From NCBI GenBank assembly GCA_049190665.1, contig CM110852.1: a DNA stretch of 64,000 nucleotides. One strand, written 5' to 3'. Source of the stretch: Lepidogalaxias salamandroides. Lineage: Eukaryota. The position numbers were made by a program, and so were the translations under genes. The notes under the pieces were generated by a model. It saw only the letters and a list, made by a program, of their open reading frames with translations. It was not told the DNA's origin and did not search any database. Below, one piece after another: positions 1 to 54,600 of the stretch (positions within the stretch are counted from its first letter, which is position 1; each line of letters starts with the position of its first letter).

Positions 1-1139
1 CTGAATGATTAATAAGCTATAAGGATGTTCAAATAAACCTTGTTAAAATACTTGTGAGAGTGTGGGAGTCAGTCGTTGGACTCGGGGGGGCTGGGTGAGG
101 CTGCACACCTGTGGGCCAATCTGCAATCAGGCCCACAGGCTTAAACCAGCCACCTCCACACACACTCGAGGCTGAGCCCTGTCCGGATAGTACGTACCAC
201 CTGCTCACTCATTCAACATTCATTTGGGCAATAAACCGGTTTCAACATCGCCCTGAGTCCTGTCGTCAGGGAGAGGCCCTGTAGCCACCATGTGCCTGTT
301 CATTTGGTGGCTGTGGCAAGGGGTACGTCACAATACTGTTGATCTTTTCAGACTTTATACCTCAAATGGCCGTCAAACTGGTGCATAATCAATGGGTGTG
401 ATCTTATAGGCCCAGGGGTTCAAACGTGATCCGGTCACATTCTGGCTATTGGATTAAATCCTGAAACTGGATCAGGTCATCAAATCCTAGCTGTAATCTG
501 GATCAAATCTTCAAAATGCATAGTTCAAATGTACAACATTATATATAATATAATTAATTATAAAAGAAATCTGAATATAAATAAGATGTCATAAGTGTCT
601 TCACAAAATTAATAAACACAACATTGATCACTCATTAATCAAACATGACCACTTGTCCATCTGTAACCCACATTCAACTTGTCAAAAGTCGTTTTTAATT
701 GACTTCTTAAATGGCGTTAAATGTGTATAATGCCACAGTATTCCTGATGTTGTTCTGTACATCCAGCAGGTGGCGCTATGTGGGCTTATGGACAGCCCGA
801 CCCGAACATGCATCACTGCAAACACACTCGTCTATAATACTCATCTATATCCCATGTCTTTTGAACCCTTAAACATCTTCCCGTCGTGTGGTGGTTCAGT
901 ATAGCATGCGTACAATAGTGTTGCAGGGTTCCTAACTTTAAAAACTCTATTTGACTCTTGCTGTGAACCCAGTATGGTGAATGTGTGCACAAACTTAAAC
1001 GAACAGTGTTCTCCTGCTGCACATCTGGAAAGGTTGCGTCACTGAGCAGGGCTCTGGGAACCGGACCAGAGCCCTGCTGCCAGGGTTGGGCCCAGCAGGG
1101 GGGGTCTTATGTAAGGAGAAGCTCTTCAGTCTGCCGGGG

Positions 1140-1600
1140 TTCTGCGTGGTTATATACATGCTGGAAAACCCATCCCTATGTTAATGGGATGGGTTCTGCA
1201 TGGTTCTATACATACTGTAGTAGAACCCATCCCTATTTTAATGGGATGGGTTCTGCGTGGTTATATACATGCTGGAAAACCCATCCCTATGTTAATGGGA
1301 TGGGTTCTGCATGGTTCTATACATACTGTAGTAGAACCCATCCCTATTTTAATGGGATGGGTTCTACGTGGTTCTATACATGCTGGAGAGCCCATCCCTA
1401 TTTTAATGGGATGGGTCCTACATGGTTCTATACATGCTGGAAAACCCATCCCTATTTTAATGTGATGGGTTCTGCATGGTTCTATACATGCTGTAGTAGA
1501 ACCCATCCCTATTTTAATGGGATGGGTTCTGCATGGTTCTATACATGCTGTAGTAGAACCCATCCCTATTTTAATGGGATGGGATGGATGACTGGACTTT
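1140..1600. repeat. Minisatellite, ~60 bp unit x ~8 (copy 2 at 13143..13545, ~7 units)
   Basis: Tandem units of the form ctgcRtggttMtatacatRctg...cccatccctatKttaatgggatgggtt. Each unit contains a palindromic core (cccatccc-tattttaat-gggatggg). The ORF-track ORFs 985..1623, 1178..1465 and 1261..1605 are artefacts of this repeat. Confidence 0.9.
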
Positions 1601-1849
1601 TGCATACTTGCTTACTTACATAACGTAGGAAATGGTGTTGTTAAGGTAATACGCAGGTACAAGGTATGGTTGGTGTGAAGGCTGGACCCTCCTGCATGAA
1701 TTGGTGATTTAATCCTTCATTCAGTTTGTAAGTGATGCAGGTGGGAAATAATCCAAATGCCTTTGGAATGATGGGCTGATAGGCAGACAAATGAAAGAGA
1801 GGACTGGACTAATTGATCATATTTAATTGGCCTATAAGTTACTCACTTA

Positions 1850-2255
1850 TAGGCAGTGGTAGACAGTAACAAAGTACATTTACTTGAGTACTGTACTTAA
1901 GTACATTTTATTTATATTGTACTTTAGACTCCACTACATTTGCGCCGGATAAGCGCGTGACACAGGCGGACGCGCCCAGCCTCACGTAAACAAACCGAGC
2001 AGTCGGGACAGCAGGTTGATAATAATGATAAATGCATGCTCCCTGCATGTTCAAAGAATTGCTACAAGACATCGGAGAGTCTCAGTATTCTCTGGTAATC
2101 GACCAAAGCACCGACGTGGCCGCAGTAAAACAGTTGTGTGCTGTAGTACGTTACTTTAGCGTCTCATTGAACAAGATTGTTTCAACTTTTTTGGGCTCAG
2201 TCGATATGCAGTATAGGCCTACTCATTCTCTCTCTCTCACTCTAACCCCCCCCCC

Positions 2256-2295
<40 letters not shown>

Positions 2296-2960
2296 ATGTA
2301 ACTCAACAAATGTAACTCGTATTAATTATGTTTATCTATATTTGTTTCCATCTTTTGCTGGCAGGGAAAGAGGAGAAGCAAGAGATGCTGACAGTACTAC
2401 AACTGACAGAGACAGACACCAAGAGACAACAGAGACAGACAGGGCGCCTGGCCAATCATAGCGCTTAAGGGCGGGGCTTGTCCAGAAGCGCGGCGCAATC
2501 CATAATAACGCGGGACGGATCCTGGCAAAATGGCGGCTCGCCCATAATGCAACGCGGTGAAAGTCAGCTTCTGAAGCGCGATAACAACTTAACGTCAATG
2601 TTTTTGAATTCAATAAAACCTAGAGGGCTTATTTAGTTGTTGGAGTTAGACAGCTGGACCCTCCTGCATGAATTGGTGATTCAATCCTTCATTCAAAAAT
2701 AAATGCCACGAATATACAGTTTGTAAGTGATTATGCATATCGTGTGAATTAAATGATCATGTATGGCATAATCACATCCATCAAATTGCCAGGGATGGGA
2801 AGTAACGAAGTACAAGTACTTTGTTACAGTACTAAATCGATTTTTCAGTACTTTTGTACTTTTTGGAGTACTTATTTTTCGGACTACTTTGTACTTTTAC
2901 GAAGTACATTTGAACACAAATACTGGTACTTTCTACTCGTTACATTTTCAAAACAAAACA
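1850..2960. mobile_element. Degraded hAT-family element remnant (copy 2 at ~13800..14910)
   Basis: End-like sequences CAGTGGTAGACAGTAACAAAGTAC (1850) and CAGGGATGGGAAGTAACGAAGTACAAGTACTTTGTTAC (2796) resemble the TIR of the intact Tol2-like element at 7843. ORF 2032..2220 encodes ...LVIDQSTDVAAVKQLCAVVRYF..., which matches the conserved hAT transposase motif (xDESTDxSxxEQLxxxxRY). It is flanked by ~70 bp direct repeats at 1679-1745 and 2652-2735. Confidence 0.6.
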
Positions 2961-2982
2961 AAAAAGTCAAAAGTAAGCGGCC

Positions 2983-2988
2983 ACGTGA
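2983..2988. promoter_or_regulatory. Canonical E-box CACGTG ~160 bp upstream of the putative ATG of the coiled-coil gene
   Basis: ggccACGTGac sits in a GC-rich stretch with no TATA box. The paralogous copy is at 14935..14940. Confidence 0.3.
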
Positions 2989-3143
2989 CAGACCCAACGT
3001 TCTATTGACTGGTCTCCACGCGACTCGCAGCGGAATTGCACGAACTTGAACAGACGAGACGAACAAGAAAAGTTAAAACACGACGCACTTGGATTTTGTA
3101 CGATTTTTTAACTACGGCAAGCGACTGGAAATCTCCCGTCATC

Positions 3144-3152
3144 ATGAACCTG
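3144..3152 (+). CDS. Putative first coding exon (M-N-L) of the unrecognised coiled-coil gene, copy 1
   Basis: catcATGaacctg|gtgag: the ATG has a reasonable context and is followed by a GTGAG donor. It joins in phase 0 to the acceptor cacacag| at 3623. This is the weakest part of the model. Confidence 0.3.
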
Positions 3153-3623
3153 GTGAGATTCAGCATTTTCTGTCGGCAAATATCGTGTTTTTACAAAAAA
3201 AATGCCGTTTCTGATGTTTGTTTTTGAGTCGCACCAATCATGATACGCTTTGTGAGTTCATGCTTGTTTAACGAAATATATCAACTACGAAATTAAAATG
3301 TGTGGTCTAAAGAGATCCAGGAGAGGGCGCTGTGGCGCAGGTTAAACACGTTTGCTTTCTGTAAACATGTTCAACAATCCCAAAGCAGACGTGTACGCCT
3401 GTAATGAAGATTGTAATATGAAAGGCCCTCTTTGCCTTCACATTTATTTCATGTAGAATGTGACTTTGAATGATTGGTTTTTAATACAAGTAACCTATTA
3501 AACGATAATGAAATGCCACCCATGGTTAATTCTGTAACACACCTGATCTCTAACCATGAATACATGAGAGAATAAAATGCTTTGGAGTTGGTCTTGAGTG
3601 CCCTCTCTTGGTATCCCACACAG

Positions 3624-3965
3624 GAGTGTGTGCCCCTGCCACCCTGCACCACAGACGGCCCTGATGCTGGCTCCCCTGGCCCCAGCCAGCCCTCCTCGCC
3701 CTCCCTCCCCCTGGTTCAGGGTCACGTAGACCCGCTCCTCCACGCTCCCTCCGCGCCTACACCGGCTACTCCCGGGAGAGTTTCCAGAAGGAAGCGGGTT
3801 CGGCCCCAGCGTTTCCGGGACCCGGGCGATGAGCCGAGCACCGGCATCTCGGCCGTGCCCCCGATCTCGCGGCCGGCCAGCCCTCAGGGAGGCGGAGAGG
3901 AGGGGTCCTGGAGCCCTTCTGACCCCTTCTTTTCCCAGCTAGAGGACTCCTCTCTGGCGGCTGAG
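3624..3965 (+). CDS. Coiled-coil gene exon A (Pro/Ser-rich: ECVPLPPCTTDGPDAGSPGPSQPSSPS...FSQLEDSSLAAE)
   Basis: Acceptor cacacag|GAG. Long open frame (ORF 3582..4028). Donor GAG|gtacag at 3966, ending in phase 0. Conserved in copy 2 (15576..15917) with only a few substitutions. Confidence 0.55.
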
Positions 3966-4085
3966 GTACAGTTTAAGGTCCACCTAATAGCTGGCTGCTG
4001 TTCCTTCCTGCTGCTTGCGTTCCTATAGCGTTGACCCGTCCGCCCCCTCTGTCGTCCTTTCTGTGTGTCTCTCTCTGTCTGTCAG

Positions 4086-4544
4086 ACTCAGGAGAGGAGG
4101 CTGAGGGAGATGGTGCAGGAGCAGCGTCTGGCTGCCCTGAAGGAGCAGCATCTGGCTGCCCTGGAGGAGCCGCTGGAGGAACGCTACCTCCGCAACGCTG
4201 CCGTCTTGCCGGACTGGCGCCCCCGCCGGACCTCCTCCCTGGCCCCACGCGACTCGGGGTCTGGGGTCTCGACGGCTGCGGAGGAGCCCCTGAGGATCCA
4301 CGGCCTCGCGGTGGAGGAGTACCAGAGCCTCTACCACTCCGTGGTGGACCCCCTGCTGGTCACTACCAACGGCAAGCCCCGGAAGTACTCCCTGGACCTG
4401 GGCCGCAGGATCAAGGAGCAGCTGTTCCGGGCTCTCTACTGCCCCGGGGACCAGTCGGTCGCCGTGAGCATCCCGCAGTTTGACCTGGACGTCAGCGGTG
4501 AGCCTAGTTGCTCGCCACCCGCTGCGAAGAGGCACCGGTGCTGA
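4086..4544 (+). CDS. Coiled-coil gene exon or module B (TQERRLREMVQEQRLAALKEQHLAALEE...RKYSLDLGRRIKEQLFRALYCPGDQ...KRHRC*)
   Basis: Acceptor tctgtctgtcag|ACT in phase 0, matching exon A. The frame is open to TGA at 4542-4544. A retained donor-like ctgag|gtacag lies 12 nt downstream. An alternative internal donor AGCG|gtgagc is at 4498. No family was recognised. Confidence 0.5.
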   Translation, partial: TQERRLREMVQEQRLAALKEQHLAALEEPLEERYLRNAAVLPDWRPRRTSSLAPRDSGSGVSTAAEEPLRIHGLAVEEYQSLYHSVVDPLLVTTNGKPRKYSLDLGRRIKEQLFRALYCPGDQSVAVSIPQFDLDVSGEPSCSPPAAKRHRC

Positions 4545-4675
4545 GCTCCGCCTGAGGTACAGAATGAGGTCCACCTAATAGCTGGCTGCTGTTCTTTCCT
4601 GCTGCTTCCGTTCCTATAGCGTTGACCCGTCCATGCCTCTGTCATCCCTTCTGTGTGTGTCTCTCGCTCTGTCAG

Positions 4676-4954
4676 GCTCAGGAGAGGAGGAGGAGGGAGG
4701 TGGAGCAGCGTCTGGCTGTCCTACCGGAGCAGCGTCTGGCTGCCCTGCAGGAGGAGTGTCTGGCTGTCCTACAGGAGCAGCGTCTGGCTGCCCTGCAGGA
4801 GGAGTGTCTGGCTGTCCTACAGGAGCAGCGTCTGGCTGTCCTGCAGGAGGAGTGTCTGGCTGTCCTGCAGGAGGAGCGTCTGGCTTCCCTGGAGAAAAGC
4901 TACCTCCACAACGCCGCTGTCTTGGCCGAGGTGCCGGTGCTGAGTTCCGCCTGA
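4676..4954 (+). CDS. Module C: a second 'intron plus terminal exon' copy, with QEQRLAALQEECLAVL 48-bp in-frame repeats
   Basis: A 118-bp intron-like sequence (gtacag...aatagctggctgc...gttcctatagcgttgacccgtcc...tctgtcag|) is followed by GCTCAGGAGAGGAGG... in phase 0 relative to exon A's donor. It ends in TGA (4952-4954) overlapping the retained donor cctgag|gtacag. Confidence 0.4.
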   Translation, partial: AQERRRREVEQRLAVLPEQRLAALQEECLAVLQEQRLAALQEECLAVLQEQRLAVLQEECLAVLQEERLASLEKSYLHNAAVLAEVPVLSSA

Positions 4955-5076
4955 GGTACAGTATAAGGTTCACCTAATAGCTGGCTGCAGTTCTTTCCTG
5001 CTGCTTCCGTTCCTATAGCGTTGACCCGTCCACGCCTCTGTCATCCCTTCCGTGTGTGTCTCTCTATCTCTGTCAG

Positions 5077-5256
5077 GCTCAGGAGAGGAGGTGGAGGGAG
5101 GTGGTGCAGGAGCAGCATCTGGTTTTCCTACAGGAGCAGCGTCTGGCTGCCCTGCAGGAGCAGCGTCTGGCTGCCCTGCAGGAGGAGTGTCTGGCTGCCC
5201 TTGAGAAACGCTACCTCCGCAACGCCGCTGTCAAGACGGAGCTGAGCTCCACCTAA
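5077..5256 (+). CDS. Module D: a third terminal-exon copy (AQERRWREVVQEQHLVFLQEQRLAALQEQRLAAL...KRYLRNAAVKTELSST*)
   Basis: Same acceptor module, ctctgtcag|GCTCAGGAG, in phase 0. It ends in TAA at 5254-5256. The downstream donor has been lost (gccagg). Confidence 0.35.
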   Translation, partial: AQERRWREVVQEQHLVFLQEQRLAALQEQRLAALQEECLAALEKRYLRNAAVKTELSST

Positions 5257-5524
5257 GGCCAGGCTGCTTTGTACATAACTGTATATAATAGTAATAGATG
5301 TATAACATGATAATAGCATAGTAGTATTTTTAAGACGTATTGAACAATTTAAGTGAGTTTGTTTTATTCCCCCTAAAATCCAAACAAAAAACAATATAAA
5401 AATACACAAAAACCTCAAAAAAACATGAATTATTTATTGTCAAATGTAATTTTGTGTTTTTAACAGTATAGTCGTTAAGCTTGTTTTACAGTGGACTGGC
5501 CAGGTCTGTGTTTCTTGTCTTCAG

Positions 5525-5940
5525 GTTGGCTGATCCATCATTTACCAAAGAGGAGAAGACGGATGGAGACGAAGAGAGACGAAGAGGGAGAGATGCACAG
5601 CGATACAAGGAGAGCCCAAGACAGATGGAGATGAAGACAGCCCCAGGAGGAGAGAGATCAAGAGAAAGAGCTTCTCTAAGGTACACATGTGAAACACTGC
5701 AAAATAAGCTGCACACTGTTGTCTACTGTTGTGACAGTGCATGCTCAGTTCCTTATCTCCCTCCATCAGGCTCAGGAGAGGGGGAGGAGCAGGGTGGAGC
5801 AAGAGGAGAACCAAGAACACAGCCGCACCCCACCACCTGATGCTTCTGCTGCCGCCAGATGACCGCCACATCATGACCGGCCCAGAACACCACCGCCTCT
5901 CATTCATTTACACCCGTCACTGTGTCCAATAAAGTCACAC
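5525..5940 (+). other. Two putative 3' exons or 3'UTR of the coiled-coil gene, with the polyA signal
   Basis: The first exon runs from ttgtcttcag|GTTGGCTG... to ...ctctaag|gtacac (5525..5680) and is K/E/R-rich. The second runs from ctccatcag|GCTCAGGAGAGGGGG (5770) to AATAAA at 5928-5933. The same arrangement is present in copy 2 at 17830..18258. Confidence 0.35.
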
Positions 5941-6759
5941 ACATTGGCACACATTTCTGATTGTTGGATATTTTTTACCTCGTTTTTGGCACTGTATGAT
6001 GTGTGGTGGGGTGTGTGTGTGTGTGTGTGTATGTTGACACTTCATCCACTACCAGTGTGTTGCACCCACCTGGGTGATGCATGGCAGCCATTATGCCATT
6101 ACTCATGCCCCGTTTGGCCTAGAGTCATGAAACTTTGCACACATATGCCCCTCCTCACGAGGAACAAATTTGCCTCAAGAACCCATATATTCCGGTTACT
6201 TAGATTTTCCGCCATTTTGAATTTTGTGAAAAACACTTAAAATCTATCTCCTCCTCTATTGAGCAATCTGTATGAAACTTGGCAGACGCAATCTAGGGAC
6301 CGATATCTACAGTTCTGATTCGGCAAAAGTTTGAAAAGTCGAAAAACGGAGCCGCTATGAGCCAATGAAGATTGCGGAGGGCGTGGCTTTTCACAAAGGT
6401 GTATAACTTCTGAACGATTGGACTGAACACCACAACACTTTGTAGGCATGTCATCATACATAACCGGAGGCTAACCCTCCATGATTGGCCAAATCAAACA
6501 AAATGGGGGCGCTAGAGAGCTCATTTCCGGTTTAGGCCTAACCGCGATGCCAATTTTTCCGAAACTTTGTACAGCGGTAGAAGGGCATGCCTAGTGGCCA
6601 ATGGATAAAGATGAAGCTGATTAGCCACAGGGTGGCGCTATAACAAGGTAAAAGGCTTGAAAGTGGCTACATTTCAAACAGGCATATCTCATGCCACATT
6701 TAAACTAAATTCATGACATTTTGCACTTAAATGCTATGGCTTATTGTGCAAACTGCTCG

Positions 6760-10359: not shown

Positions 10360-11430
<1,071 letters not shown>

Positions 11431-12002: not shown

Positions 12003-14203
12003 ACTGAATGATTAATAAGCTATAAGGATGTTCAAATAAACCTTGTTAAAATACTTGTGAGAGTGTGGGAGTCAGTCGTTGGACTCGGGGGGGCTGGGTG
12101 AGGCTGCACACCTGTGGGCCAATCTGCAATCAGGCCCACAGGCTTAAACCAGCCACCTCCACACACACTCGAGGCTGAGCCCTGTCCGGATAGTACGTAC
12201 CACCTGCTCACTCATTCAACATTCATTTGGGCAATAAACCGGTTTCAACATCGCCCTGAGTCCTGTCGTCAGGGAGAGGCCCTGTAGCCACCATGTGCCT
12301 GTTCATTTGGTGGCTGTGGCAAGGGGTACGTCACAATACTGTTGATCTTTTCAGACTTTATACCTCAAATGGCCGTCAAACTGGTGCATAATCAATGGGT
12401 GTGATCTTATAGGCCCAGGGGTTCAAACGTGATCCGGTCACATTCTGGCTATTGGATTAAATCCTGAAACTGGATCAGGTCATCAAATCCTAGCTGTAAT
12501 CTGGATCAAATCTTCAAAATGCATAGTTCAAATGTACAACATTATATATAATATAATTAATTATAAAAGAAATCTGAATATAAATAAGATGTCATAAGTG
12601 TCTTCACAAAATTAATAAACACAACATTGATCACTCATTAATCAAACATGACCACTTGTCCATCTGTAACCCACATTCAACTTGTCAAAAGTCGTTTTTA
12701 ATTGACTTCTTAAATGGCGTTAAATGTGTATAATGCCACAGTATTCCTGATGTTGTTCTGTACATCCAGCAGGTGGCGCTATGTGGGCTTATGGACAGCC
12801 CGACCCGAACATGCATCACTGCAAACACACTCGTCTATAATACTCATCTATATCCCATGTCTTTTGAACCCTTAAACATCTTCCCGTCGTGTGGTGGTTC
12901 AGTATAGCATGCGTACAATAGTGTTGCAGGGTTCCTAACTTTAAAAACTCTATTTGACTCTTGCTGTGAACCCAGTATGGTGAATGTGTGCACAAACTTA
13001 AACGAACAGTGTTCTCCTGCTGCACATCTGGAAAGGTTGCGTCACTGAGCAGGGCTCTGGGAACCGGACCAGAGCCCTGCTGCCAGGGTTGGGCCCAGCA
13101 GGGGGGGTCTTATGTAAGGAGAAGCTCTTCAGTCTGCCGGGGTTCTGCGTGGTTATATACATGCTGGAAAACCCATCCCTATGTTAATGGGATGGGTTCT
13201 GCATGGTTCTATACATACTGTAGTAGAACCCATCCCTATTTTAATGGGATGGGTTCTACGTGGTTCTATACATGCTGGAGAGCCCATCGCTATTTTAATG
13301 GGATGGGTCCTACAGGGTTCTATACATGCTGGAAAACCCATCCCTATTTTAATATGATGGGTTCTGCATGGTTCTATACATGCTGTAGTAGAACCCATCC
13401 CTATTTTAATGTGATGGGTTCTGCATGGTTCTATACATGCTGTAGTAGAACCCATCCCTATTTTAATGGGATGGGTTCTGCATGGTTCTATACATGCTGT
13501 AGTAGAACCCATCCCTATTTTAATGGGATGGGATGGATGACTGGACTTTTGCATACTTGCTTACTTACATAACGTAGGAAATGGTGTTGTTAAGGTAATA
13601 CGCAGGTACAAGGTATGGTTGGTGTGAAGGCTGGACCCTCCTGCATGAATTGGTGATTTAATCCTTCATTCAGTTTGTAAGTGATGCAGGTGGGAAATAA
13701 TCCAAATGCCTTTGGAATGATGGGCTGATAGGCAGACAAATGAAAGAGAGGACTGGACTAATTGATCATATTTAATTGGCCTATAAGTTACTCACTTATA
13801 GGCAGTGGTAGACAGTAACAAAGTACATTTACTTGAGTACTGTACTTAAGTACATTTTATTTATATTGTACTTTAGACTCCACTACATTTGCGCCGGATA
13901 AGCGCGTGACACAGGCGGACGCGCCCAGCCTCACGTAAACAAACCGAGCAGTCGGGACAGCAGGTTGATAATAATGATAAATGCATGCTCCCTGCATGTT
14001 CAAAGAATTGCTACAAGACATCGGAGAGTCTCAGTATTCTCTGGTAATCGACCAAAGCACCGACGTGGCCGCAGTAAAACAGTTGTGTGCTGTAGTACGT
14101 TACTTTAGCGTCTCATTGAACAAGATTGTTTCAACTTTTTTGGGCTCAGTCGATATGCAGTATAGGCCTACTCATTCTCTCTCTCTCACTCTAACCCCCC
14201 CCC

Positions 14204-14245
<42 letters not shown>

Positions 14246-17200
14246 ATGTAACTCAACAAATGTAACTCGTATTAATTATGTTTATCTATATTTGTTTCCA
14301 TCTTTTGCTGGCAGGGAAAGAGGAGAAGCAAGAGATGCTGACAGTACTACAACTGACAGAGACAGACACCAAGAGACAACAGAGACAGACAGGGCGCCTG
14401 GCCAATCATAGCGCTTAAGGGCGGGGCTTGTCCAGAAGCGCGGCGCAATCCATAATAACGCGGGACGGATCCTGGCGAAATGGCGGCTCGCCCATAATGC
14501 AACGCGGTGAAAGTCAGCTTCTGAAGCGCGATAACAACTTAACGTCAATGTTTTTGAATTCAATAAAACCTAGAGGGCTTATTTAGTTGTTGGAGTTAGA
14601 CAGCTGGACCCTCCTGCATGAATTGGTGATTTAATCCTTCATTCAAAAATAAATGCCACGAATATACAGTTTGTAAGTGATTATGCATATCGTGTGAATT
14701 AAATGATCATGTATGGCATAATCACATCCATCAAATTGCCAGGGATGGGAAGTAACGAAGTACAAGTACTTTGTTACAGTACTAAATCGATTTTTCAGTA
14801 CTTTTGTACTTTTTGGAGTACTTATTTTTCGGACTACTTTGTACTTTTACGAAGTACATTTGAACACAAATACTGGTAGTTTCTACTCGTTACATTTTCA
14901 AAACAAAACAAAAAAGTCAAAAGTAAGCGGCCACGTGACAGACCCAACGTTCTATTGACTGGTCTCCACGCGACTCGCAGCGGAATTGCACGAACTTGAA
15001 CGACAGACGAGACGAACAAGAAAAGTTAAAACACGACGCACTTGGATTTTGTACGATTTTTTAACTACGGCAAGCGACTGGAAATCTCCCGTCATCATGA
15101 ACCTGGTGAGATTCAGCATTTTCTGTCGGCAAATATCGTGTTTTTACAAAAAAATGCCGTTTCTGATGTTTGTTTTTGAGTCGCACCAATCATGATACGC
15201 TTTGTGAGTTCATGCTTGTTTAACGAAATATATCAACTACGAAATTAAAATGTGTGGTCTAAAGAGATCCAGGAGAGGGCGCTGTGGCGCAGGTTAAACA
15301 CGTTTGCTTTCTGTAAACATGTTCAACAATCCCAAAGCAGACGTGTACGCCTGTAATGAAGATTGTAATATGAAAGGCCCTCTTTGCCTTCACATTTATT
15401 TCATGTAGAATGTGACTTTGAATGATTGGTTTTTAATACAAGTAACCTATTAAACGGTAATGAAATGCCACCCATGGTTAATTCTGTAACACACCTGATC
15501 TCTAACCATGAATACATGAGAGAATAAAATGCTTTGGAGTTGGTCTTGAGTGCCCTCTCTTGGTATCCCACACAGGAGTGTGTGCCCCTGCCACCCTGCA
15601 CCACAGACGGCCCTGATGCTGGCTCCCCTGGTCCCAGCCAGCCCTCCTCGCCCTCCCTCCCCCTGGTTCAGGGCCACGTAGACCCGCTCCTCCACGCTCC
15701 CTCCGCGCCTACACCGGCTACTCCCGGGAGAGTTTCCAGAAGGAAGCGGGTTCGGACCTTGCGTTTCCGGGACCCGGGCGATGAGCCGAGCACCGGCATC
15801 TCTGCCGTGCCTCCGATCTCGCGGCCGGCCGGCCCTCAGGGAGGCGGAGAGGAGGGGTCCTGGAGCCCTTCTGACCCCTTCTTTTCCCAGCTGGAGGACT
15901 CCTCTCTGGCAGCTGAGGTACAGTATAAGGTCCACCTAATAGCTGGCTGCTGTTCCTTCCTGCTGCTTGGGTTCCTATAGCGTTGACCCGTCCGCCCCCT
16001 CTGTCGTCCTTTCTGTGTGTCTCTCTCTGTCTGTCAGACTCAGGAGAGGAGGCTGAGGGAGATGGTGCAGGAGCAGCGTCTGGCTGCCCTGAAGGAGCAG
16101 CATCTGGCTGCCCTGGAGGAGCCGCTGGAGGAACGCTACCTCCGCAACGCTGCCGTCTTGCCGGACTGGCGCCCCCGCCGGGCCTCCTCCCCGGCCCCAC
16201 GCGACTCGGGGTCTGGGGTCTCGCCGGCTGCGGAGGAGCCCCTGAGGATCCACGGCCTCGCGGTGGAGGAGTACCAGAGCCTCTACCACTCCGTGGTGGA
16301 CCCCCTGCTGGTCACCGCCACCGGCAAGCCCCGCCAGTACTCCCTGGAGCTGGGCCGCAAGATCAAGGAGCAGCTGTTCCGGGCTCTCTACTGCCCCGGG
16401 GACCGGTCAGGGGCCGTGAGCATCCCGCAGTTTGACCTGGACGTCAGCGGTGAGCCTAGTTGCTCGCCACCCGCCGCGAAGAGGCACCGGTGCTGAGCTC
16501 CGCCTGAGGTACAGAATGAGGTCCACCTAATAGCTGGCTGCAGTTCTTTCCTGCTGCTTCCGTTCCTATAGCGTTGACCCGTCCATGCCTCTGTCATCCC
16601 TTCTGTGTGTGTCTCTCGCTCTGTCAGGCTCAGGAGAGGAGGAGGAGGGAGGTGGAGCAGCGTCTGGCTGTCCTACCGGAGCAGCGTCTGGCTGCCCTGC
16701 AGGAGGAGTGTCTGGCTGTCCTGCAGGAGCAGCGTCTGGCTGCCCTGCAGGAGGAGTGTCTGGCTGTCCTACAGGAGCAGCGTCTGGCTGCCCTGCAGGA
16801 GGAGTGTCTGGCTGTCCTACAGGAGCAGCGTCTGGCTGCCCTGCAGGAGGAGTGTCTGGCTGCCCTGCAGGAGGAGTGTCTGGCTGCCCTGCAGGAGGAG
16901 TGTCTGGCTGCCCTGCAGGAGGAGTGTCTGGCTGCCCTGCAGGAGGAGTGTCTGGCTGTCCTGCAGTAGGAGCGTCTGGCTTCCCTGGAGAAGAGCTACC
17001 TCCACAACACCGCTGTCTTGGCCGAGGTGCCGGTGCTGAGCTCCGCCTGAGGTACAGTATAAGGTTCACCTAATAGCTGGCTGCAGTTCTTTCCTGCTGC
17101 TTCCGTTCCTATAGCGTTGACCCGTCCACGCCTCTGTCATCCCTTCCGTGTGTGTCTCTCTATCTCTGTCAGGCTCAGGAGAGGAGGTGGAGGGAGGTGG

Positions 17201-18300
17201 TGCAGGAGCAGCATCTGGTTTTCCTACAGGAGGAGTGTCTGGCTGCCCTGGAGAAACGCTACCTCTGCAACACCGATGTCTTGACGGAGCTGAATTGAAA
17301 TAAGGGGAGTCAGGCGACCAGTTTGTCAAAGAAAAGCATATTTATTGGTAAAGTGCGGGGAGCGGGGGTGGGGGTGTAAGGCAACTCAAATCCTTCCCGT
17401 CTGGGGTCTGGCTTCATCCGGCCTAGGGAGAGAGGGCAGAGGAGAGCGGGTAGGGTTAGTGGGGGCGGCTAGGCCCGACTCTCAGACCTCCGAGCATTGG
17501 GCCTTGGCAATTAGCCTAATGCCGCTCACCTGTTGCTGCTTGCTCAGGCAGTGAACAGGTAATTAGGGACGTACTTGCCCTCAATTAGCTTCCCCAATAG
17601 CCTGCGTTGGGGGAAGGGTCTCTGACCGTGCTGCTGAAGGGGCCTCTGATGCCTACCCCCCCTCTGCCAGGGGCACTGGGGTGCCACACCCCTAAAAACC
17701 AAACAAAAAGCAATATAAAAATACACAAAAACCTAAAAAAAAGAATGATTTATTGTCAAATTGAATTTTGTGTTTTTAACAGTATAGTCGTTAAGCTTGT
17801 TTTACAGTGGACTGGCCAGGTCTGTGTTTCTTGTCTTCAGGTTGGCTGATCCATAATTTACCGAGGAGGAGAAGATGGATGGAGACAAAGAGAGACAAAG
17901 AGGGAGAGATGCACAGCGATACAAGGAGAGCCCAAGACAGATGGAGATGAAGACAGCCTCAGGAGGAGAGAGATCAAGAGAAAGAGCTTCTCTAAGGTAC
18001 ACATTTGAAACACTGCTAAAGTAAGTAAAATAAGCTGCACACTGTTGTCTACTGTTGTGACAGTGCATGCTCAGTTCCTTCTCTCCCTCCATCAGGCTCA
18101 GGAGAGGAAGAGGAGCAGGGTGGAGCAAGAGGAGAACCAAGAACACAGCCGCACCCCACCACCTGATGCTTCTGCTGCCGCCAGATGACCGCCACATCAT
18201 GACCGGCCCAGAACACCACCGCCTCTCATTCATTTACACCCGTCTCTGTGTCCAATAAAGTCACACACATTGGCACACATTTCTGATTGTTGGATATTTT
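12003..18300. repeat. Segmental duplication, copy 2 of the ~6 kb block
   Basis: Same content and order as 1..5990. Differences are: one fewer unit in the hairpin minisatellite; a 3-bp indel near 15003; more 48-bp coding repeats at 16680-16960; a ~400 bp unique insert at 17300-17700; and divergent last modules. Confidence 0.9.
15097..18258 (+). CDS. Paralogous copy 2 of the coiled-coil gene (gene-level span)
   Basis: ATG at 15097; exon A 15576..15917; module B 16038..16496; module C from 16628 with ~9 48-bp repeats and an in-frame TAG at 16967-16969; a divergent module D at about 17160-17300; and terminal exons ending at AATAAA near 18250. Confidence 0.4.
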
Positions 18301-19007
18301 TTACGTTGATTTGGCACTGTGCAGTACACTACACGTTTATTTTATTAAAACTAATTAAACTGTTTAGTGACAGTTCTGAATGACTAGACTCTGGGGCTGG
18401 GTGAGGCTGCACACCTGTGGGGCAACAGTAATCAAGGCCCACAGGTTAAACCAGCCACCTTCACACACTCAGGACTGAGCCCTGACGTCAGTTTCTACCA
18501 TCTGCTCAACAAACAACTCATTGTACATCTCAGCAATAAACCGCATTCAACATGGCCCTGTGTCATGTCGTCTTGGAGAGGCCCTGCAGCAGCCGTTTTC
18601 AGCTTCGGTGGCAGTAGCTAGGACTACGCTACAAAGGGTTATTAAACTTAAGCACATTCTTAAAACATGTTCCTTGTTTTCCTGAGAGAAATGTTTATTG
18701 TACATTGACATTTACAACTCAAAAAAATGAATTGGCAGAAAATGTGTCATTTTTATTACATTTAGCTTACTCAATCACAAGGAAACAATTGCATTGTGAA
18801 AACCTCATTCAAAACCATTGATGAACAATTAAAAACAATCATCACCATTACCCATCTATCTGATACACAACCAACTTAAGTCACATAACCACAACCAGAA
18901 AAACTAGTGGAAAAGAACCCCTTCATACAAAGGAACAAGGTCACCAATACACATACAGCCCACTGCAAACACTGACACAACTCCACATGCACAGCATAGC
19001 ACACCGC

Positions 19008-19498: not shown

Positions 19499-48335
<28,837 letters not shown>

Positions 48336-49339: not shown

Positions 49340-50520
49340 ATTAGGGCTGTCAGTTAAACGCGTTATTAACGGCGATAACGCAAACCCATTTTAACGGCGT
49401 CAATTTTTTTGACGCCGTTAAAAAAAAATGGATACGCCCCCCCCCCCCGTCAACAATCGCTAGCGGGGATATACGCGCCACCCCCCCCCCCCCGTCAACA
49501 ATCGCTAGCGGGGATATACGCGCCACCCCCCCCCCCCTGTCAACAATCGCTAGCGGGGATATACGCGCCAGCACCCCCCCCCCCCCCCCCGTCAACAATC
49601 GCTAGCGGGGATATACGCGCCACCCCCCCCCCTCCCCCCCGTCAACAATCGCTAGCGGGGATATACGCGCCACCCCCCCCCCCTCCCCCCGTCAACAATC
49701 GCTAGCGGGGATATACGCGCCCCCCCCCCCCCCCCCCCCGTCAACAATCGCTAGCGGGGATATACGCGCCACCCCCCCCCCCCCCGTCAACAATCGCTAG
49801 CGGGGATATACGCGCCACCCCCCCCCCCCCCCCGTCAAGAATCGCTAGCGGGGATATACGCGCCACCCCCCCCCCCTCCCCCCCGTCAACAATCGCTAGC
49901 GGGGATATACGCGCCACCCCCCCCCCCCTCCCCCCCGTCAACAATCGCTAGCGGGGATATACGCGCCACCCCCCCCCCCTCCCCCCGTCAACAATCGCTA
50001 GCGGGGATATACGCGCCCCCCCCCCCCCCCCCCGTCAACAATCGCTAGCGGGGATATACGCGCCACCCCCCCCCCCCCGTCAACAATCGCTAGCGGGGAT
50101 ATACGCGCCACCCCCCCCCCCCGTCAAGAATCGCTAGCGGGGATATACGCGCCACCCCCCCCCCCTCCCCCCCGTCAACAATCGCTAGCGGGGATATACG
50201 CGCCACCCCCCCCCCCCTCCCCCCCGTCAACAATCGCTAGCGGGGATATACGCGCCACCCCCCCCCCTCCCCCCCGTCAACAATCGCTAGCGGGGATATA
50301 CGCGCCAGCACCCCCCCCCCCCGTCAACAATCGCTAGCGGGGATATACGCGCCAGCACCCCCCCCCCCCCCCCCGGCAACAATCGCTAGCGGGGATATAC
50401 GCGCCCCCCCCCCCCCCCCGCCAACAATCAACAATCGCTAGCGGGGATATACGCGCACGTTAACTATGACATTATGTGATTAATCATGATTAAATATTTT
50501 AATCGATTGACAGCTCTAAT
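49340..50520. mobile_element. Non-autonomous TIR element (1181 bp) carrying an internal ~44-50 bp minisatellite with variable-length poly-C tracts
   Basis: Terminal inverted repeats ATTAGGGCTGTCA (49340) and TGACAGCTCTAAT (50520). Subterminal TTAACG/CGTTAA motifs and an internal palindrome taacggcgtcaa-ttttttt-ttgacgccgtta. The interior holds ~22 tandem units of gtcaacaatcgctagcggggatatacgcgcca(C)10-22. Flanked by (TA)n on both sides. No ORF. Confidence 0.65.
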
Positions 50521-50529
50521 ATATATATA

Positions 50530-51571
50530 TCTACCGGGCCCGTTGTCGGCACAAAGTCAAACACGTTCCCAGTGGGTGTTGGACTCCGCCAAGGCTGCCC
50601 TTTGTCACCGGTCCTGTTTGTGGTATTCATGGACAGGATCTCTAGGCGCAGCCGAGGTGAGGAGAGTGTCCGGTTCGGTGACCTCAGAATTGCGTCTCTG
50701 CTTTTTGCGGATGACGTGGTTCTGCTGGCTTCATCGGACCGTGACCTTCAGCACGCACTGGGGCGGTTTGCAGCCGAGTGTGAAGCGGCCGGGATGAGGG
50801 TCAGCACCTCCAAGTCTGACGCCATGGTTCTCTGCCGGAAAACGGTGGGTTGCTCCCTCCAGGTTGGGAATGAGTCCCTGCCCCAAGCGAAGGAGTTCAA
50901 GTATCTCGGGGTCTTGTTCACGAGTGAGGGTAAAATGGAGCGTGAGATCGACAGGCGGATCGGTGCAGCGTCAGCAGTAATGCGGGCGCTGTACCGGACC
51001 GTCGTGGTGAAGAGGGAGCTGAGCCGGAAGGCGAAGCTCTCGATTTACCAGTCGGTCTACGCTCCTACCCTCACCTATGGTCATGAGCTCTGGGTAGTGA
51101 CCGAAAGAACAAGATTGCGGATACAAGCGGCCGAAATGAGCTTCCTCCGTAGGGTGGCTGGGCTCAGCCTTAGGGATAGGGTGAGGAGCTCAGCCTTAGG
51201 GATAGGGTGAGGAGCTCAGCCTTAGGGATAGGGTGAGGAGCTCAGACATCAGGAGGGAGCTCAGAGTAGAGCCGTTGCTCCTTTGCGTCGAAAGGAGCCA
51301 GCTGAGGTGGTTCGGGCATCTGATCAGGATGCCCCCCGGACGCCTCCCTTTGGAGGTTTTCCGAGCACGTCCAACTGGGAGGAGACCACGAGGTAGACCC
51401 AGGACCCGCTGGAGGGATTATATATCCCTCCTGGCCTGGGAACGCCTCGGGATCCCCCAGGAGGAGCTGGAAAGCGTCGCTGGGGAGAAGGACGTCTGGA
51501 ATAGCCTGCTCAGCCTACTGCCCCCGCGACCCGACTCGGATAAGCGGTGGACAATGGATGGATGGATGGAT

Positions 51572-51625
<54 letters not shown>
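50530..51625 (+). mobile_element. 5'-truncated L2-clade LINE: RT C-terminal half plus 3' tail with (GGAT)n(AT)n
   Basis: ORF 50572..51210 contains the RT motifs GLRQGCPLSPVLF and LLFADDVVLL (YXDD-type box). ORF 51233.. contains RWFGHLIRMPPGRLP..RPRGRPRTRWRDY, typical of the L2/CR1-type ORF2 C-terminus. It ends in ggatggatggatggatggat(at)n at 51555-51625. An internal 26-bp triplication lies at 51160-51240. Confidence 0.8.
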
Positions 51626-54600
51626 GCTGCTGCTAGTTTCCAATGTTTGGAACTCATGATCCGCGATTGCTCTAAAATAATTGGCCCGAAGGACTAAACG
51701 GAGATGAGGCAACTCTCTGTCTCTATGGCTCTGGCTGCTGCAGTGGAACTACAAGTGAGGGATAACGCCCAGGTGTCCTTTATCAGGGATTAATGGACGA
51801 CATTAATCCTTGATAATGGACACCTTGAAGGGAATTATCCCGCTTATACCATGGTCACTTACCAAAGATTAAAAACAAGGTTTGGTGCTTTATGTTTCGG
51901 GGCAATTCGCTCTAAAAATAAAAACTTTTGGGCAACGCTTTATCTGGTTCCCTGGAAACACCCGTGGGTCTGAATAATACCTGGAACACAATTAGTCTCA
52001 CCCATACTCCTACAAACAGTAGTTTACAACTCCAGCCAATAGGACAAACCTTAGATATAACTTGGCAAAAACGTTGAATTAAAATTCAATTCAACGTTTC
52101 CATTTATTGTGAAATTCGATAGCGATATAAGCAAGTCCGGCATATCGGCCTTTGAAGGAGAGTGTTTGACAGCTGGACTGGACTGGCCATGATGGTCGGG
52201 ACATTGGAAGACGACAAGACGTGGCTCTGTTCTCTTCTCTCCCAATAATTGATGACCTGTCACCGACATCTGACGGCTCTCCAGGTCGGAGTCTGAGAGC
52301 CGACCTACTTCAGAGGCTGTGGTTTGTGAAAGACCCACCTGAAAGGTACAATGATTATAGATGATTATATTTTGGGGATGGAGGGAGACAGTACTACATA
52401 TTTAGTCTCTGTCATATATGTTTATATAGGACTGCATTAATACAAGTTGTGTGTTATGGTAGCTTTACGATGGCAAGAGGCTGTTTTACAGCAGATCTGT
52501 GCAGATCTGTGCTTCATTCATTCTGTTGTTGCAAGTTGATGCAGACAAATAAAGAAACTCAACCCTCGATCATTCTATAGTCTCATACAAAATTATTAGA
52601 CTGTCATGTCTTTAATAGCTGATAGACATTAAGTGTAATCACCTCTTCTCTGATCTTTGGAGGCCACGGTGCAATTCAGGTGGCGGTAGAAAGATTTAGC
52701 ATCTGATGGACATTTGGAAATGCATGATGGACATCTTGAAACTTGCGACCGGACACAGCATAAACCCTCTCAGGTTTTCCTTGTCTGGGTCATTTGGGTC
52801 TTTACGATTCTTTGTTTGTGGAAATGAGTTCAAGGTCCGACTCAGAGATACAGGGATGGTGGAGGCTGGCATCTTTACCGCTTTTCCTGTAACGTTTAAG
52901 TATGGCTTTAAACACCGCATTGCTGGTCTTGAATCTGGTGTCAGTCATGACATTGAATTCCATTAAATGGTGGTTAATACTGGCCCTCAGACTCCTTAGA
53001 CTGGCAACGCTGTACTCCCCCTCCGCCTTGGTGGACCGGACCCCCGCAGGGTCTCATTCAGAACATTGGCGGTGTAGTTTTCAAAGTTGGAGTCATTGGT
53101 TTTGTTCACTGCGCTGAACTTCACAAAGGGCAAACTGAGGCAGCGAGGGAATTGTGCACGGATGAGTCATGCCTTTACGATCCTTCTGACCACTGTGAGC
53201 CTGTTCCCTACTGTTCCTCCTGCCACCCCTCAGAGGAACTCATAAAAGTACAACTGGACGTCCACTATTCTAAAGGACCAGCACCGGTGGCCCGGGAAGT
53301 CATGCAGATCCATCAGCAGCATCTTTCTCTTCCATGTCTCTTCAGCTCCCCAGCATATTAGAAAGGGTTGTACTATCATCCACACCGAGAACCTTAAGAT
53401 GAGACTCTGGTCCACCACACTGTGGCTGGGACCAGGGTTTATATTCTCTGTCCCCTATTTTACTACCAGGTGGGATGTTTATTAGCCATTACAAGCCATG
53501 ATACATCTGGGAGAACACTCGCACTTGTGATGTCACTAGAGGATAGATTTTGACATGGCTTGTAATGGCTAATCACCATCACACCTGGTGGAAAAATAGG
53601 GGCCCTTTAAAAGAGACAGTTGGCTTGCTATTAACTACGTAGAAAAATTGTTTAAAAGGTGAATGCTATTCGTATTACCGTCTCACTGCATTCTTTGTTT
53701 GTGATCATGCATGAAATTCTCCTGTAAACAGGAAACTGTGTGTGTGTGTGCCTGTGTGTGTGTTTCTGTTAAAGAATGCTGCTATCTCAGATAAGCAGTT
53801 TTCCACACTGTCTCCCATATGATTTGCATCTGGATCCATAAAGCCGCCTTCCAGTAGGGGCAGATTTGCTAGGAGGATATGATACGGTCCACATACTGTC
53901 CATCCGTACTAAAGAGTCAATAGCTTCATCAATATACAGTACCACTCAAAGACGATGAGCGATTGTATTAAATGATTAATTAGCTCACCTACTTGCTTAG
54001 TGACGCGGCTAAACCATCACTTGTCGTGCATTGTGTAACATAATGCTGCTCAGCACTTTGCCACCGGTGTTCGACCCAATTGAGTTTCTTTAAAACCGCC
54101 CCATCCTTCTGTTGAACGCTAAGTTTGTTTTCTGCTCGGTGAGTTCTTGTGTGTGTGTGTGTGTGTGTATGTGGGCACGTGCGCTGCATTGAAGCACTCT
54201 GTGTACATCCGGAAACGCTGAGTTACATATTTTTGGTGTACGGGGGGCCAGCTGCGTGGTTGGATTAATGACCCTGGGACACATGTTCTTCTCCACCCGC
54301 ACTGTCCTCTTTGATGAATCGCTGTGCGTTGGAAACAACAACCTGCAGGCCGGGGTCTCTGCTGCTGACGCCACGTCCCCTACTACTGGTGTTTAGATTC
54401 CCTCTGTTCTCGTCTCTCATCCAGCAGGATCCAGAGAGGAGAGAGGGGAGAGAGAGAGAGGTATGTTGGGGTCTTTACAAAGTGGTCGTGTTTCAACTTG
54501 GCGCTGACAAAAAGCCCTCTAGTCCTGCTATTCCTCTCCCCTCGGTTATCTCTCTCTCTCTCTTTCTCTCTGAGATCTGCCAGCTGGGAAAGGGCGTACG

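Follow-up and report, generated by a model that had tools for sequence, protein, structure and literature searches.

A C22orf31/DUF4662 homologue in Lepidogalaxias salamandroides with tandem copies of its last intron and exon

When the last intron and exon of a gene recur in tandem, every copy in phase with the same upstream exon and closing with a stop codon of its own, are the copies alternative 3' terminal exons, or does the layout record how the DNA was duplicated? The question is raised by a locus near the beginning of a 64,000-nucleotide (nt) stretch of the genome of Lepidogalaxias salamandroides (GenBank assembly GCA_049190665.1, contig CM110852.1), the whole of which we call the window. 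In it, an exon (exon A) is followed by three modules, B, C and D, each made up of an intron copy and an exon copy. A first-pass annotation had taken the locus for an unrecognised coiled-coil gene in which any of the three modules could serve as the terminal exon. We find that it is a homologue in the C22orf31/DUF4662 family, whose function is uncharacterised, that module B is its ancestral complete last exon with the ancestral stop, and that the idea of C and D as alternative 3' terminal exons appears, on balance, disfavoured.

A DUF4662 gene and its ancestral last exon

Joining MNL to exon A and module B gives a product of 269 residues that matches the Pfam family PF15578/DUF4662 (the C22orf31 family) with an E-value of 3.6e-18 and a score of 66.8 bits, against a Pfam gathering score of 27; residues 136-236 of the protein align to profile positions 156-259 of 269. 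This known-family hit, found by profile and protein search, overturns the earlier statement that exon A and module B match no recognised family. The nearest relative is a hypothetical protein of the hake Merluccius polli, 73% identical across 93% of the query, and further homologues are uncharacterised proteins of Alosa, Engraulis and Sardina and a Monopterus protein named C22orf31, all of which carry PF15578. All 18 invariant and all 15 nearly invariant columns of a 15-sequence family alignment are kept in the window protein, which has the conserved family motifs ERY(I/L)(R/K)NAAVLPD, L.IHG, YHSVVDP.L and Y.L.LGR.IK together with a basic C-terminal ...SGEP...KR.R tail. A profile search of the PDB with the family alignment gave no match at E<=1. 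In a literature search no papers mentioning DUF4662 were found and C22orf31 was mentioned only in screen lists, the human protein being uncharacterised; it is listed in a sperm proteome (PMC5931513) and belongs to a testicular germ-cell tumour expression signature (PMC10298883).

Comparison with Alosa and Engraulis reveals a shared gene structure. Exon A is open in phase 0, and its phase-0 donor, CTGAG|GTACAG at 3966, stands as first described (Table 1). Its boundary, FFPHLEDSS.xAE|, is kept in Alosa and Engraulis, where the same phase-0 intron follows ...DSSxxAE (loci L002 and L003, respectively), with donor GAG|GTACAA and an acceptor before A(K/A)ERKRRE; the window gene thus shares with its family a phase-0 intron ahead of an A(K/Q)ER(K/R)RRE exon. 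In Alosa and Engraulis one single last exon then holds both the domain and the stop, ending ...D.D.SGEP..P..KR.R*, and in the Alosa gene this stop is followed, about 85 nt on, by an AATAAA. The C-terminal motif of module B is common to Alosa, Engraulis and P0004. It is because Alosa and Engraulis share its intron, its single last exon and its C-terminal motif that we regard B as ancestral. What sets the window gene apart from the family is its tandem arrangement, the extra truncated copies of its last intron and exon, and an expanded 8-residue repeat that opens its last exon. Compared with the clupeiform homologues, the window protein is also without some 17-20 residues (aligned to ...VETxxADGRVxIxE...).

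The whole unit of about 6 kb exists twice in the window. Positions 1-5995 are 97-98% identical to 12004-18320, where a second gene copy, overlooked in the first-pass annotation, spans 15097-18260 including its modules and repeats the three-module layout (its parts are designated A', B', C' and D'). The A+B frame is intact in nine of nine copies examined, two in the window and seven Merluccius paralogues. Between the two window copies the ratio of non-synonymous to synonymous substitution rates (dN/dS) is 0.16 for A and 0.68 for B, with a pooled synonymous excess at p = 0.02. The motif cores ERYxRNAAVLPD and EEPLRIxGLAVEEYQSLYHSVVDPLL are nearly unchanged, indicating a protein that evolves fast outside these cores.

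Exon A contains no Met at all, so the start must lie upstream of it. Our candidate is a short exon that had been missed, ATGAACCTG|GTGAGA, which is identical in both gene copies; the equivalent place in Merluccius reads ATG|GTGAAT. The first exon annotated in Merluccius (MCGLK...) also has a homologue in the window, which measures 43 nt as against 114 nt in Merluccius (10001-10114 of L001; annotated in seven of seven paralogues). As a start for the window gene it was rejected, being frame-incompatible with exon A such that splicing yields early stops. Either the Merluccius models begin at the wrong ATG or the species differ in their start exon. The canonical E-box reported for the promoter does exist but carries no special weight: CACGTG occurs 11 times in the 64-kb window (the copy 2 counterpart is at 14932) and the Merluccius equivalent is CACGTT, so we rejected it as uninformative.

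Breakpoints and order of the duplications

The repeated modules themselves are well described by the first-pass annotation. All three in-phase acceptors, CTGTCAG|(A/G)CTCAGGAGAGGAGG at 4086, 4676 and 5077, are present as it described them, as are the in-frame stops (TGA 4542-4544, TGA 4952-4954 and TAA 5254-5256), and the modules are homologous, with self-BLAST identities of 85-90% (E 1e-57 to 1e-96). Across the junction, the intron and the first 36 nt of the exon, identity is 83% for B/C, 87% for B/D and 92-93% for C/D. Smaller points needed amendment: the introns, given as 118 base pairs (bp) each, measure 120, 119 and 121 bp; the module borders, right to within 1-2 bases, become 3966-4556, 4557-4955 and 4956-5256; and the gtacag donor said to follow each stop is found after B and C but not after D, whose end reads CCTAA|GGCCAGG. 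From there module D continues into the ancestral 3' flank, GGCCAGGCTG, which is common to the second module of Merluccius. Modules C and D have lost about 300 bp internally, and with them the whole DUF4662 core; what they have in common with B is confined to the head (AQERRxRE, the 8-residue repeats and ERYLxNAAV) and the last few nucleotides.

We propose that a segment running from the first intron base through the last exon to 12 nt past the stop was copied in tandem. The breakpoints lie at the boundary of exon A and its intron (CTGAG|GTACAG) and just after the stop (CCTRAG|GCCAGG), with the microhomology T(G/A)AG|G common to both (junctions in Table 1). Breakpoints at these positions automatically recreate in each copy a GAG|GTACAG donor, a phase-0 start and a near-terminal stop, and selection need not be invoked. 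The stop of C is the TGA of CCTGAG, a result of the frameshift caused by the internal deletion. That the copies are phase-compatible, have stops of their own and retain donors thus follows from where the breakpoints fell and is not functional evidence.

Merluccius polli, with at least seven annotated paralogues on two contigs, reveals the order of events: the first duplication and its deletion, then C/D, then the whole unit. Two complete Merluccius gene copies, read on one contig, each consist of B plus one truncated module, and this module matches those of the window in its internal deletion and its 3' flank. In an identity matrix of junction, intron and exon start, window B is 88-90% identical to Merluccius B and window C/D are 85-87% identical to Merluccius module 2, while the modules of window copies 1 and 2 are 98-99% identical. 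Because B groups with Merluccius B, and C/D with Merluccius module 2, the first duplication, together with the deletion of about 300 bp from the downstream copy, predates the split from Merluccius. The truncated copy was then duplicated again in the window lineage to give C and D, and the duplication of the whole 6-kb unit, after that of C/D, is the latest event. A fourth, decayed module that had escaped notice (the E2 module, 5681-5862) is the remnant of a still older copy; it is 52-61% identical to the other modules, and BLAST ties 5756-5808 to the acceptor region of Merluccius B. The locus is thus one unit of a lineage-specific tandem array, with at least two gene copies in the window and at least seven in Merluccius polli.

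Table 1. Features of the two gene copies in the window and sequences at the module junctions
Feature	Position	Strand	Details
E-box CACGTG	2982-2987	+	about 160 bp upstream of candidate ATG
Candidate first coding exon ATGAACCTG	3144-3152	+	donor GTGAGA; phase 0; A at -3; putative assignment
Homologue of annotated Merluccius first exon (MCGLK...)	3298-3340	+	tblastn match
Exon A	3624-3965	+	114 codons; Pro/Ser-rich; ends ...FFSQLEDSSLAAE; phase 0 at both ends
Intron, 120 bp	3966-4085	+	donor GAG|GTACAG; acceptor ctgtcag|
Module B, last coding exon	4086-4544	+	152 codons + TGA; DUF4662 core; C-terminus ...DLDVSGEPSCSPPAAKRHRC*
Post-stop segment and second intron copy	4545-4675	+	post-stop 12 nt 4545-4556; junction CCTGAG|GTACAG; second intron copy 4557-4675
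Module C, truncated exon copy	4676-4954	+	7.7 x 24-bp (8-residue) repeats; TGA at 4952
Third intron copy, 121 bp	4956-5076	+	
Module D, truncated exon copy	5077-5256	+	4 x 24-bp repeats; TAA at 5254; no donor after
E1, possible exon of the 3' untranslated region	5525-5680	+	acceptor cttcag|G; donor AAG|GTACAC; stop after two codons from phase-0 donor
Fourth, old decayed module	5681-5862	+	89-bp intron-like copy; acceptor catcag|GCTCAGGAGAGGGGG
E2, 30-codon open reading frame of fourth module	5770-5862	+	TGA at 5860-5862
First canonical AATAAA downstream of exon B	5928-5933	+	conserved in copy 2 (18254) and Merluccius (12311)
Gene copy 2	15097-16496	+	exon 1' 15097-15105, A' 15576-15917, B' 16038-16496; intact 269-codon open reading frame
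Module C'	16628-17051	+	24-bp array grown to 13.9 units; in-frame TAG 16967-16969
Module D'	17173-17298	+	shortened; end and 3' flank replaced by insertion of about 390 bp
AATAAA of gene copy 2	18254-18259	+	
Junction, exon A/intron			GGCGGCTGAG|GTACAG
Junction, end of B			TGAGCTCCGCCTGAG|GTACAG
Junction, end of C			TGAGTTCCGCCTGAG|GTACAG
Junction, end of D			TGAGCTCCACCTAAG|GCCAGGCTG
Junction, Merluccius end of B			TGAGCTCCACCCGAG|GTAATA
Junction, Merluccius end of module 2			GCTGAGC TGAG|GCCAGGCTC

Modules C and D as putative 3' exons

Several lines of evidence bear on whether the downstream modules are used. Between 4086 and 5927 no AATAAA or ATTAAA was found, and weak variants occur only after D (AATATA at 5393, TATAAA at 5395). 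With no poly(A) signal before 5928, B and C would not be terminal in the polyadenylation sense, and the AATAAA at 5928 is the likely shared 3' end of all transcripts. Modules C and D would then most likely lie in the 3' untranslated region (UTR) behind the B stop, either retained or spliced, and the main product is likely to be the 269-residue protein encoded by exon 1, A and B. We hold this account as a whole, with a canonical A+B product, C and D as 3'UTR relics in a transcript ending at 5928 and an origin by duplication as proposed above, to be moderately probable.

C and D show no detectable coding constraint, on small substitution counts. Non-synonymous and synonymous differences from Merluccius module 2 stand at 7:1 (head 3:0, tail 4:1), a small sample; no excess of third-position changes was found in C/D versus Merluccius, and most of the differences between D' and D are replacements. 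Neither of the hypothetical products, A+C or A+D, has a DUF4662 or other Pfam match, and no protein in which exon A is joined to a C or D tail (the peptide SYLHNAAVLAEVPVLSSA is an example of sequence unique to these tails) was found in a collection of 5.8 billion protein clusters. Three of the six frames of module C are free of stops in what is a 65% GC repeat, so that an open frame here says little.

The repeat that opens these modules is a 24-bp unit encoding eight residues (QEQRLAAL/QEECLAVL), present in 2.2 copies in B, in 7.7 copies in C versus 13.9 in C', and in 4 copies in D versus about 2 in D'; the head of B in the Merluccius paralogues holds a single unit or two (AQAERLAAL versus AQEQRLAALQAERLAAL). 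The 16-residue repeat described for module C, QEQRLAALQEECLAVL, is borne out by Tandem Repeats Finder, which returns 7.7 x 24 bp and 4.0 x 48 bp. As in coding minisatellites, the unit is a multiple of three and its copy number varies among the window modules; the difference is that, of the arrays, just the short one in B can be called coding with certainty. The claim of a coiled coil was not supported by a check of hydrophobic periodicity. The spectrum peaks at a period of 8.0 (power 142.9 for C and 107 for D), whereas power at 3.5-3.6 residues is only 0.7-4.3 (0.7 at 3.5 for C), almost nil, and the best occupancy of heptad a/d positions by LIVMF is 0.5; the period is thus eight residues and not a heptad. 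AlphaFold2, run on the exon-B product with a 16-sequence alignment, gave a low-confidence model (overall predicted local distance difference test (pLDDT) score 64.6, predicted template modelling score 0.29) with helices at 3-25, 30-38, 76-87 and 103-118, the block formed by 3-25 and 30-38 reaching a pLDDT of about 74-77. A helical 8-residue repeat is a fair description of C and D.

Spliced transcripts would place the modules in a different light. If the recreated donors at 4557 and 4956 were used, the gene would resemble those with 3'UTR introns after the stop codon, with predicted introns behind the B stop. Nonsense-mediated decay (NMD) that depends on the exon junction complex follows a 50-55 nt rule. 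Under this rule the B-C junction, 12 nt past the stop, should be harmless, and the C-D junction, about 290 nt past the stop in the spliced mRNA, would make the transcript a candidate for NMD.

Tandemly duplicated, mutually exclusive terminal exons are known, for example in Drosophila pip and PGRP-LC (PMC9013439), and the duplication of an intron with a terminal exon is thus an already known kind of event, of which the locus is a mechanistic illustration. The window modules resemble these genes in being homologous tandem terminal exons, each with its own intron copy and 3' splice site and served by one upstream donor. They differ in that B and C have no cleavage and polyadenylation signal, and in that the downstream copies are truncated, have neither the conserved domain nor coding constraint, and include a premature stop in the sister copy.

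Beyond the modules, the best-conserved stretch of the gene unit versus Merluccius is 5681-5995 (17997-18320 in copy 2; 12062-12377 in L001), at 92-93.5% identity; it takes in both the decayed fourth module and the AATAAA at 5928. Its E2-module block, 5681-5862, is about 93-93.5% identical, compared with 87-88% for the coding exons; E1 is 84% identical to its Merluccius counterpart, with a 24-nt indel. An antisense open reading frame at 5542-5907 was considered as the cause of this conserved 3' block and rejected, a stop interrupting it in Merluccius. The predicted RNA structure of 5682-5995 is not more stable than that of shuffled sequence (z = +1.74), and an Rfam scan of 2500-6500 returned no match at E<=1, so that neither the 3' block nor the conserved copies of the intron show a small RNA.

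A number of observations weigh against a single A+B product with C and D as relics, and some of them suggest that C, D or E2 are real alternative coding 3' exons, spliced from A or from an internal donor near the end of B, giving isoforms that either have no DUF4662 core or gain a helical tail rich in Q/E/L/A, its length set by the number of 24-bp repeats. Exon usage is throughout read from sequence, and nothing in the sequence bars splicing from A to C or to D: near-identical polypyrimidine/CAG acceptors in phase 0 and compatible with a shared donor stand at 4086, 4676, 5077 and, decayed, at 5770. The truncated module has been kept since before the split from Merluccius, and its frame 0 is without stops in C, D, D' and both of the Merluccius second modules read, although, as noted, open frames are weak evidence in a 65% GC repeat, and an in-frame TAG in C' and the disruption of D' mark the sister copy. 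Six of the seven annotated Merluccius proteins end in the second-module tail, which is uninterrupted in them, the models being spliced as B(FNLD)|AQDRR...module 2; these are unverified predictions that rely on a poor GAC|GTCAGC donor, and the model of the seventh ends at the canonical stop. The only canonical AATAAA comes after E2, itself 93.5% conserved, and pip and PGRP-LC provide a precedent. Against this stand the missing poly(A) signals of B and C, the tails of C and D without coding constraint, and products that would be without all invariant family residues save the ERYLxNAAV motif. A further difficulty for the A+B account is that a spliced A-B-C-D mRNA is a predicted NMD target, which would be an odd default for a functional gene. 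We consider real alternative coding exons unlikely, and the narrower proposal that C, D and E2 are used, either with B skipped or from a donor close to its end (the arrangement of the Merluccius models), somewhat less likely again.

Other observations raise the prospect that the whole array is decaying, its copies non-functional or barely constrained, similar to each other through recent duplication and gene conversion, with the modules expanding in the manner of a satellite. Relative to Merluccius, dN/dS values of 0.52 (A) and 0.74-0.80 (B) point to weak constraint on A+B; the exons (87-88% identity) are not better conserved than the introns (87.5-87.8%), and dN of 0.11-0.14 is close to intron divergence. 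The start codon is tentative, the exon at 3144-3152 being a candidate and the annotated Merluccius first exon being frame-incompatible in the window. Repeat numbers vary freely, and the Merluccius protein, at 73% identity, was the closest homologue found in the protein collection. An array in decay would hardly be expected to have an uninterrupted A+B frame in every one of nine copies, family cores nearly unchanged with each invariant column kept, and a dN/dS below 1 between the window copies (as low as 0.16 in A, with the pooled synonymous excess given above), and we regard general decay as improbable, a shade more so than the use of C, D and E2 after skipping B. That the three modules come from a mis-assembled repeat is very improbable indeed: the region is repeat-rich and contains a minisatellite, but the modules are 7-17% different from one another and distinct in internal structure, the second copy, at 2% divergence, repeats the B-C-D order, and the layout of B plus module 2 is found in the independent assembly of Merluccius polli. 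The A+B product with 3'UTR relics thus remains the reading we prefer.

Neighbourhood of the locus and spread of the family

The recognised neighbours of the gene in the window are a VIT/VWA gene and fragments of long interspersed nuclear elements (LINEs). Exons of the former, with a VIT and a von Willebrand A domain, lie at 37243-40355 (-; Pfam VIT E 7e-12, weak VWA_2/VWA_3), and LINE-type reverse-transcriptase fragments (RVT_1) lie at 50572-51697 (+) and 31270-31884 (-), with a tandem repeat of about 1 kb and a period of about 45-50 bp adjoining the LINE fragments at 49437-50456. A 466-residue poly-proline-rich frame (APPPPPPP) with an internal duplication is found at 23732-25132 (-) and shares its N-terminal motif with an open reading frame at 25585-26202 (-); neither has a Pfam match. 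Closer to the gene copies, and within the duplicated 6-kb unit, tandem repeats of 57/111 bp (about 8 x 57 bp) are found some 1.5 kb upstream of each, at 1137-1583 and 13140-13532, and 26 units of a 23-bp repeat (95% matches) occupy 10365-10964 in the unduplicated spacer between them. About 390 bp at 17296-17690 are peculiar to copy 2, where they displace the end of D' and about 125 bp of the flank common to copy 1 and Merluccius.

Clupeiform fishes have multiple, dispersed DUF4662 genes, at least four Engraulis paralogues lying on four separate records of 51.6-57.9 Mb. All four clupeiform loci examined (L002-L005; one from Alosa, three from Engraulis) lie antisense in introns of large unrelated genes, the hosts being an LDL-receptor family gene, a teneurin, an ADAMTS gene and a gene for a 3884-residue protein. 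The three Engraulis paralogues examined share an intron-containing unit of about 2.5 kb with 70-78% identity. The overall pattern resembles that of a mobile or repeatedly copied DNA segment.

A formerly unrecognised gene is thus placed in a vertebrate family of no known function, one that has undergone tandem amplification in cod-like fishes and apparently occurs in several scattered copies in herring-like fishes. The locus is a worked example of how a single tandem duplication can mimic designed alternative exons, and calls for caution in gene annotation; the Merluccius models share the same architecture, yet their annotation is split between two C-termini. Expression of the extra modules, if it occurs, would make the locus a young model of how alternative 3' exons, or 3'UTR introns sensitive to NMD, are born. 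Should C, D and E2 prove to be used as coding exons, a young array of a sperm-associated orphan gene would make both DUF4662 proteins and DUF4662-less proteins with helical tails whose length is set by a variable number of tandem repeats, and would capture vertebrate alternative terminal coding exons soon after their birth by microhomology-mediated duplication.

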